From: Escherichia coli
GTDB taxonomy: Bacteria; Pseudomonadota; Gammaproteobacteria; Enterobacterales; Enterobacteriaceae
Direction: 5' to 3' (one strand)
Assembly: GCF_003790525.1 (NCBI RefSeq)
Contig: NZ_CP033635.1
Length of the DNA stretch: 64,000 nt
The notes beneath the pieces are model-generated. The model did no database searches, had not been told where the DNA came from, and worked only from the letters and a program-made list of their open reading frames with translations. The position numbers and the translations under genes are program-made. Positions 1 through 1,312 of this stretch are shown here, in pieces. Position 1 is the stretch's first letter, and each line of letters starts with the position of its first letter.

Positions 1-51
1 CCTGAAGAAGTGGTGCTGGACGCAGAAGACGCGGATATAACAGACAAATAA
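1..51 (+). CDS. uraA: 3' end of uracil permease gene (partial, C-terminal 16 codons plus stop)
   Basis: In-frame read [16 protein letters not shown] then TAA at 49-51; position immediately upstream of hda matches the upp-uraA-hda order. The C-terminal sequence itself is not recalled with certainty. Confidence 0.55.
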
Positions 52-145
52 TGTACCGACCGGGCAGTGTTGCTGCCCGGTTCAAACATCATGGGATTCT
101 GTGGTAAACTTCTCGCGATTTTGTGAAATCCTGGTTGAGGTATCT

Positions 146-847
146 CTGAACACACCGGCACAGCTCTCTTTGCCACTTTATCTTCCTGACGACGAAACCT
201 TTGCAAGTTTCTGGCCGGGGGATAACTCCTCTTTACTGGCCGCGCTGCAAAACGTGCTGCGTCAGGAACATAGCGGTTACATCTATCTCTGGGCACGCGA
301 AGGCGCGGGGCGCAGCCATCTGCTGCACGCGGCTTGCGCGGAATTGTCACAGCGTGGCGATGCGGTGGGTTATGTCCCGCTGGATAAACGCACCTGGTTT
401 GTTCCGGAAGTGCTCGACGGTATGGAGCATTTGTCGCTGGTCTGTATCGACAACATTGAGTGTATTGCAGGCGATGAGTTGTGGGAGATGGCGATTTTCG
501 ATCTCTACAATCGAATTCTGGAATCGGGTAAAACACGGTTGTTGATCACCGGCGATCGTCCACCGCGGCAGTTGAATCTGGGATTACCGGATCTCGCGTC
601 GCGTCTCGACTGGGGGCAGATCTACAAATTGCAGCCACTTTCTGATGAAGATAAGTTGCAGGCGCTACAGTTACGCGCTCGTTTGCGTGGTTTTGAACTG
701 CCGGAAGATGTGGGGCGTTTCTTGCTGAAGCGGCTCGACAGAGAAATGCGCACGTTATTTATGACGCTGGATCAGTTGGATCGTGCGTCGATTACCGCGC
801 AACGTAAGCTGACCATTCCGTTTGTGAAAGAAATTCTGAAGTTGTAG
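146..847 (+). CDS. hda: DnaA regulatory inactivator Hda (AAA+; N-terminal clamp-binding motif QLSLPL)
   Basis: Track ORF 101-847 (248 aa) matches Hda. The mature protein is recalled to begin at a CUG so that the clamp-binding motif is N-terminal; the CTG at 146 gives 233 aa ([16 protein letters not shown]...). Confidence 0.85.
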
Positions 848-886
848 ACAAGACGTTTATTGTCGGAAATGCACCCATAGTATTCG

Positions 887-923
887 TCGGCCGGATAAGA
901 CGCGGCAAGCGTCGCATCCGGCA
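887..923. repeat. REP (repetitive extragenic palindromic) element between convergent hda and yfgD
   Basis: tcggccggataagacgcggcaagcgtcgcatccggca has the typical GCCGGATAAG...CGCATCCGGC REP signature. Confidence 0.7.
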
Positions 924-952
924 ATGTGCTTCAACTAGCGATGGAGCACTTC

Positions 953-1312
953 TTAACCCACGATTTCCAGTACCTGCTCCGGTGGACGACCAATCCGCGC
1001 TTTGCCATTCGCGACCACAATCGGGCGCTCCATTAGCTTTGGATTATCCACCATTGCCTGAATCAGCGCCCCTTCGCTAAGCGAACTGTCAGCCAGGTTC
1101 AGTTCTTTATAAAGATCCTCTTTCTGGCGCATCAATTCACGAGCGCTATTCATTCCCAGCATTTTCAGCAAATCACGCAGCGTTGCCGCATCGGCGGGTG
1201 TCTGAAGGTAGAGCACCACTTCTGGCTCCACGCCGTTTTCTTTCAGCAGGTTCAGCGTTTCCCGGCTCTTTGAACAGCGTGGGTTATGGTAGATTTTTAC
1301 CTGTTTGGTCAT
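953..1312 (-). CDS. yfgD: ArsC-family putative arsenate reductase
   Basis: 119-aa ORF matching YfgD length; sits 20 bp downstream of bepA on the same strand. Confidence 0.85.
   Translation of the reverse strand: MTKQVKIYHNPRCSKSRETLNLLKENGVEPEVVLYLQTPADAATLRDLLKMLGMNSARELMRQKEDLYKELNLADSSLSEGALIQAMVDNPKLMERPIVVANGKARIGRPPEQVLEIVG

Follow-up and report, generated by a model that had tools for sequence, protein, structure and literature searches.

Where does translation of hda begin? The gene lies near the start of the DNA analysed here (64,000 nucleotides of Escherichia coli contig NZ_CP033635.1, assembly GCF_003790525.1; hereafter the window), where a list of open reading frames has an entry at 101..847, opened by GTG 101 and closed by TAG 845–847, that specifies 248 amino acids. 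In the sequence of window 1–1200 a CTG (146–148) stands in the same frame as the GTG (101–103), 45 nt or 15 codons further on, and translation from this codon to the same TAG yields 233 amino acids. The first-pass annotation, made from the letters alone, had favored the CTG.

Our analysis leaves little room for a different view: hda translation almost certainly starts at CUG 146 and delivers a 233-residue Hda in which the clamp-binding motif QLSLPL occupies residues 6–11, with positions 101–145 non-coding. For E. coli the CTG start is correct but not new, having been established by experiment in 2008 and being part of the current reference annotation. What is added here is an account of the false GTG as part of an extended −10 element, quantitative comparative support for the CTG, and a set of probable start mis-annotations in related genera.

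Identity of the locus

The first 1,200 positions of the window contain the 3′ end of uraA (uracil permease; 1..51, plus strand, stop codon TAA at 49–51), a 94-nt intergenic region and the hda reading frame. The uraA assignment follows the RefSeq annotation of an identical strain and the sequence itself; that of hda, which encodes the DnaA inactivator Hda (CDS 146..847, plus strand, 233 amino acids and TAG), draws on RefSeq, NCBIfam, Pfam and identity to PDB entry 5X06. The first 900 nt have a match in 5,425 of 5,426 complete E. coli genomes, with 100% identity to strain 2014C-3075 and approximately 98.6–98.8% identity to most E. coli over the same length. Positions 1–345, promoter, leader, Shine-Dalgarno (SD) sequence and CTG included, are identical to K-12 MG1655; the few substitutions that separate the two sequences over window 1–770 all lie at or beyond position 349. 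The window belongs to a strain lineage other than that of K-12, but its hda is the same gene as that of K-12 (b2496, NP_416991.2; CUG start, 233 aa), has the same CDS boundaries and differs from it in nothing of substance.

The protein passes both equivalog models for the family, NF005982 (474.8 bits against a cutoff of 268) and TIGR03420 (281.7 bits against 194.8), and matches the Pfam families Bac_DnaA (the AAA+ DnaA-type ATPase) and Hda_lid. Residue 153, in CTG-based numbering, is an arginine within ASRLDW; Arg153 is the arginine finger of Hda, in Box VII (Kim 2017). Given 100% identity to the Hda part of PDB 5X06, the protein of the window would be expected to possess the RIDA activity of its characterised counterpart, that is, to stimulate hydrolysis of DnaA-ATP together with the DNA-loaded clamp.

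Of two E. coli Hda variants in public data, one (P0001, 258 aa) carries a 25-residue tandem duplication and another (P0102, 218 aa) a 30-residue deletion; both changes hit the Box VII/arginine-finger region, and the two are possibly loss-of-function alleles. One complete E. coli genome record, NZ_CP102488.1, has as its position 1 exactly the hda CTG (window 146), presumably a consequence of a genome-rotation tool taking Hda, a DnaA paralogue, for dnaA. Downstream of the gene, E. coli lineages diverge from about window position 867 onward. The hda–arsC/yfgD intergenic region contains a stretch (889–959) with sub-threshold matches on both strands to the Rfam family naRNA4 (32.9 bits; gathering score 59.5). 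naRNA4 is a REP-derived nucleoid-associated RNA, and the stretch is most likely a REP element.

The CTG start in earlier work and in the sequence

Several sources place the start of E. coli hda at the CTG. The statement on hda in EcoGene 3.0 gives a CTG start and cites Su'etsugu et al. 2008, J Biol Chem 283:36118. In RefSeq, the hda CDS of the 100%-identical strain corresponds to window 146–847, and that of MG1655 (2618075..2618776, NP_416991.2) is 702 nt long, in agreement with the 233 residues that the first-pass annotation gave for Hda. Table S3 of Nakahigashi 2016 (PMC4909307) records that the 2006 annotation placed the hda start 45 nt further upstream than the 2014 annotation. On manual inspection of tetracycline ribosome profiling (TetRP), the same authors scored hda as "3. 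2014", which is the CTG site; their automatic caller returned "no change", such that the assignment to the 2014 site comes from manual inspection only. Ribosome profiling had been put forward as a check on the start, and the TetRP signal lies where the CTG predicts it.

The position of the clamp-binding motif tells the same story. Encoded at 161..178 (plus strand), QLSLPL comprises residues 6–11 when counted from the CTG and residues 21–26 when counted from GTG 101, and is thus N-terminal, as had been argued, only if translation starts at the former; in the Hda family the motif, QL[SD]LPL, is expected within roughly the first ten residues. The motif appears as 6-QLSLPL-11 of a 233-residue protein in Kim 2017, whose crystal structure shows it bound in the cleft of the beta-clamp. 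The Hda construct of PDB 5X06 consists of a tag followed by M-NTPAQ, and the crystal numbering uses the CTG start. RefSeq, EcoGene 3.0, the TetRP signal and 5X06 are therefore in agreement on initiation at CUG 146.

The initiation codon (146..148, plus strand) is preceded by the SD sequence GAGGT (137..141, plus strand) with a 4-nt spacer. The duplex predicted between this region and the anti-SD has an energy of −6.9 kcal/mol and ranks among the strongest 4% of all 20-nt windows over the initial 20 kb; the corresponding value for GTG 101 is −4.0 kcal/mol. The GAGGT with its 4-nt spacer, the strong anti-SD duplex and the invariance of the codon among 80 species (below) together mark CTG 146 as more than a chance occurrence.

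In E. coli K-12 a CTG start has been confirmed for a second gene, yfjD (EcoGene 3.0). As for hda, a canonical start had earlier been wrongly annotated; the CTG was predicted from conservation and the ribosome binding site and then confirmed by start-codon mutagenesis (EcoGene 3.0). The two proteins are unrelated, and the errors differ in direction: the wrong start of yfjD was a downstream TTG, whereas that of hda was an upstream GTG.

Conservation of the initiation region

To quantify constraint on the start we compared hda loci from 80 species of Enterobacteriaceae, one genome per species, with protein identities of 92–100%. All 80 have CTG at the codon that aligns with window 146. Leucine is conserved at 31 positions in all 80 proteins, and at 30 of these between three and six synonymous codons are used; codon 1 is the only one at which a single codon occurs. 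Of 163 fully conserved degenerate positions just three are also invariant at the nucleotide level, namely codon 1 (CTG), codon 4 (CCG) and codon 21 (AGT). Constraint on the initiation region may explain the invariance of codon 4 (Pro; window 155–157). Codon 21 (Ser; 206–208) is likewise nucleotide-invariant in the 80 species.

GAGGT is found at −9 to −5 from the CTG in 79 of the 80 species, and in the one remaining species the spacer is 1 nt longer. The upstream part of the frame behaves very differently from the CTG. An in-frame stop occurs within 45 nt upstream of the CTG in 60 species, and a canonical codon at −45, the position of GTG 101, in only seven. No in-frame ATG, GTG or TTG exists between the upstream stop and the CTG in 46 species; where there is one its position is not conserved, and in 22 species some canonical in-frame codon falls inside the predicted leader. 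The distance from the −10 element (see below) to the CTG varies among species from 33 to 39 nt, and not in multiples of three. Even within Escherichia the frame of the 15-codon extension fails: one locus (L003) has a 1-nt insertion that breaks it, and in E. albertii (L005) a stop at −54 shuts it shortly before the GTG at −45 is reached.

Taken together, hda shows the properties by which a gene with a near-cognate CUG start is recognised: no canonical start explains the conserved N-terminus, the start codon shows constraint at its synonymous sites, and an SD sequence stands at a functional distance from it. In E. coli, window 85–180, which spans promoter, leader, start and clamp motif, is at least 99% identical in 5,358 of 5,426 records; over 96 nt this threshold means zero mismatches in the aligned stretch.

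The upstream GTG and a probable hda promoter

The GTG (101–103) lies inside the block TGTGgTAAACT (100..110, plus strand), made up of a TG at 102–103 and the hexamer TAAACT at 105–110. Among the 80 species the TG and, within the hexamer, the TA..CT vary little or not at all, and position 104 between them takes all four bases. This pattern points to TGTGnTAAACT as the probable extended −10 promoter of hda. Upstream of hda, the reduced motif TGnTAnnnT recurs in Yersinia, Erwinia, Proteus, Serratia, Shewanella, Ferrimonas, Vibrio, Aeromonas and Plesiomonas.

A −10 element at this position predicts a transcription start site (TSS) at window 117/118. Published data agree: in the SMRT-Cappable-seq results of Yan et al. 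2018 (PMC6131387, Supplementary Data 2), b2496 forms a single-gene operon whose TSS is MG1655 position 2618805, reverse strand. Genome coordinates convert to window coordinates as 2618922 minus the genome position (from the CDS start, 2618776, at window 146), which places this TSS at window 117, a G located 7 nt past the −10 hexamer. The hda-only mRNA (plus strand of the window) thus has a 29-nt leader, 117–145. GTG 101 is upstream of the TSS and within the −10 element, and is accordingly promoter DNA that lies outside the hda-specific mRNA. The 15-codon "extension" of the reading-frame list (101..145, plus strand) is best read as non-coding, comprising promoter, discriminator and 5′ UTR; the family models, the in-frame stops and the variable spacing all argue for this. 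In the alignments to both NF005982 and TIGR03420, residues 1–13 of the 248-aa frame are left uncovered.

Other data sets and searches do not show this promoter. The TSS data of Kim 2012 have no TSS at window 117 and for hda contain only a 2-read TSS inside uraA; the supplements of Ettwiller 2016 have no TSS entry in the hda coordinate range. A consensus promoter and terminator scan of window 1–1000 made no calls. For the promoter this is attributable to a poor −35 element: TTCAAA and TAAACT together score 8/12, which is under the threshold.

The lesson for annotation is that rules based on the longest reading frame and a canonical start fail at this locus, where the false GTG is a piece of the gene's own promoter.

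Read-through from uraA and alternative starts

Not every hda transcript need begin at window 117. Between uraA and hda lies the uraA terminator (60..84, plus strand), a hairpin formed by CCGGGCAG (60–67) and CTGCCCGG (73–80) and followed by TTCA. The hairpin is kept in the 80 species, changes in one arm being compensated in the other (CAG/CTG, CGG/CCG, TGG/CCA); it has no T-run, which is why a simple scan does not call it. SMRT-Cappable-seq places a transcription termination site of upp-uraA at 2618838, which corresponds to window 84 (Yan et al. 2018, PMC6131387). Of 260 reads in M9, 37 end at this site and 95 continue past it; for rich medium the counts are 30 and 8 of 214 (Yan et al. 2018, PMC6131387). 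The same study lists an upp-uraA-hda operon variant. These data suggest that hda transcription is coupled, in a condition-dependent manner, to the uracil salvage operon.

Transcripts that start at the upp promoter and read through carry GTG 101, and the GTG is thus present on some hda mRNAs. This leaves a small residual probability for dual initiation, with CUG 146 giving the main product and GTG 101 a minor 248-aa isoform made on upp-uraA read-through mRNAs. Read-through in M9 is substantial, the GTG is in frame in the 5,358 of 5,426 E. coli records that are identical over 85–180, and a weak GGGA stands 4 nt before it. Against this, the manual TetRP score for hda is "3. 2014" rather than "4. 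multiple", conservation of the extension fails already within Escherichia (the L003 insertion and the E. albertii stop described above), and the extension would bury a clamp-binding motif that is N-terminal in all family models. We consider such an isoform very unlikely.

Initiation at GTG 101 in place of the CTG, as in the reading-frame list and the 2006 K-12 annotation, would lengthen Hda at its N-terminus by 15 residues, to 248 aa. The GTG is a canonical start codon and opens the longest reading frame; annotations used it as the start up to the U00096.3 update, and the 248-aa form is frequent among automatic gene calls (cluster P0002, for example, has 3,510 members). But a codon that precedes the hda-specific TSS, inside the −10 element, has a weak SD, is closed off by stops in most of the 80 species and adds residues that no family model covers is an extremely improbable start, and both the TetRP signal at the downstream site and the concordant EcoGene statement argue against it. 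Least credible of all, with a probability we regard as negligible, is a start at TTG 170 (Leu9): the codon is in frame, and a 225-aa product is annotated in some Klebsiella and Pantoea (KPN_02819, at 678 nt; P0064, "MPLYLPDD", 225 aa, in RefSeq-derived data), but the codon lacks an SD (duplex −1.7 kcal/mol), is TTG in 42 of the 80 species, CTG in 37 and TTA in one, and would cost the protein Q6, L7 and S8 of the motif, which are clamp-bound in 5X06, in contradiction to the conservation of residues 1–8.

The hda leader

With CUG 146 as the start, the leader of the hda-only mRNA is the 29-nt sequence GAUUUUGUGAAAUCCUGGUUGAGGUAUCU. Positions 117–190 are no more structured than shuffled sequences (z = +0.95) and give no sign of a riboswitch or an occluding hairpin; a search of window 1–200 against Rfam returned zero matches. 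A DnaA-box-like sequence noticed by eye on the minus strand of 122–130, GATTTCACA, was rejected because Citrobacter and Klebsiella do not share its TGTG.

The leader also contains a mini-ORF (123–149; GTG AAA TCC TGG TTG AGG TAT CTC TGA) whose stop codon, TGA 147–149, overlaps the CTG (cTGA). A role for GTG 123 in translational coupling was considered and rejected, the frame of the mini-ORF relative to the CTG being shifted among close relatives. A 1-nt indel, seen in Citrobacter, in Salmonella arizonae and in one lineage of E. coli, brings the ATG or GTG of the mini-ORF into frame with hda at −24.

Start annotations in related genera

Automatic gene calling with canonical-start rules has given the conserved hda at least four different N-termini. 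Beyond the Enterobacteriaceae, Yersinia, Erwinia, Proteus and Serratia retain GAGGT, a spacer of 4–6 nt and CTG-AAy. In Yersinia, Erwinia and Proteus (L083, L084 and L085) the sequence reads GAG GTG CTT CTG AAy, and the annotated start is the GTG inside the SD, two codons before the CTG. The resulting 235-aa proteins ("MLLNTPAQ") are probably systematic two-codon errors. The NCBIfam model NF005982 has 235 positions, which means that the GTG form is built into it. Serratia aquatilis, with a spacer of 6 nt, has the GTG out of frame, and here PGAP calls the CTG.

Probable errors of other kinds occur as well. In Citrobacter and Salmonella arizonae the in-frame ATG at −24 has no SD and lies within about 6 nt of the predicted 5′ end; it matches the 241-aa calls, an Hda form with an 8-residue extension (P0005). 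Some Klebsiella and Pantoea annotations, as noted, begin at Leu9 and lose the clamp motif.

Five genomes from outside or at the edge of the Enterobacterales (L087–L091) were also inspected, their starts being annotations rather than experiments. Shewanella algae and Ferrimonas balearica are annotated with GTG, Vibrio stylophorae and an Aeromonas metagenome-assembled genome (MAG) with TTG, and a Plesiomonas MAG with CTG, called by PGAP; none of the five has an ATG start, and TGnTAnnnT is present upstream in each. Hda of Shewanella, Ferrimonas, Vibrio and Aeromonas belongs to the same family as that of E. coli, has QLSL a few residues from the start and shares with it a non-AUG start codon, although this is annotated as GTG or TTG and not as the CTG of the Enterobacterales. 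Judged by this pattern, weak initiation may be a widespread property of Hda in the gamma-proteobacteria.

A weak start as a possible throttle on Hda

Why should a conserved gene begin at so poor a codon? The first-pass annotation held that a rare start codon throttles expression. The mechanical part of this proposal is plausible, as initiation at CUG proceeds at approximately 1–2% of the efficiency of AUG (0.02–3%, depending on the construct; Hecht et al.), and Hda is most likely kept scarce as a result. The further step, that selection has maintained the codon in order to keep the level of Hda low, is one that we infer from the comparative data. AUG, GUG and UUG are each a single substitution away from CUG, and yet a canonical start has replaced the CTG in none of the 84 Enterobacterales loci read as DNA, nor in the Plesiomonas MAG. 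That no replacement is found fits the idea that the weak codon may have been kept as a throttle.

Expression of hda may then be pictured as follows. From the gene's own probable extended −10 promoter (100–110), transcription starts at G117; GAGGT (137–141), within the 29-nt leader, sets the 30S subunit on CUG 146; and ordinary SD-directed initiation would follow on a near-cognate codon, at roughly 1–2% of AUG efficiency. The weak CUG would most likely hold Hda at the low level suited to a regulator of DnaA-ATP hydrolysis (RIDA).

Near-cognate starts with consequences for expression have precedents. Initiation factor IF3 discriminates against near-cognate start codons, and translation of hda may consequently respond to IF3 levels. 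E. coli infC, which encodes IF3 itself, and pcnB both have AUU starts, which belong to the same 1–2% efficiency class as CUG; through IF3 discrimination these starts limit or regulate expression of the two genes. The rare codon of infC takes part in an autoregulatory loop that has been demonstrated; for hda, to our knowledge, no loop of this kind, acting through the start codon, is known.

We lean, by a modest degree, toward regarding the weak start, CUG with its GAGGT, as a selected feature of the order as a whole, present in the 80 Enterobacteriaceae and in Yersinia, Erwinia, Proteus, Serratia and Plesiomonas, and not as a curiosity of E. coli. If this is correct, then many current hda annotations are off by two to eight codons (the 235-aa forms, the 241-aa forms of the Citrobacter/Salmonella type and the 225-aa forms), and the extended −10 promoter of hda would likewise be conserved across gamma-proteobacterial orders. 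Automatic calls in relatives add residues before the N-terminal clamp-binding motif or cut into it.

The significance of a weak start lies in what Hda does. Hda sets the rate at which DnaA-ATP is inactivated after the start of replication, and its abundance therefore matters for initiation once per cell cycle. A CUG start codon is a simple means of keeping Hda scarce; if the weak start is indeed a selected, order-wide feature, then low translation initiation would be a conserved design feature of the RIDA regulator.
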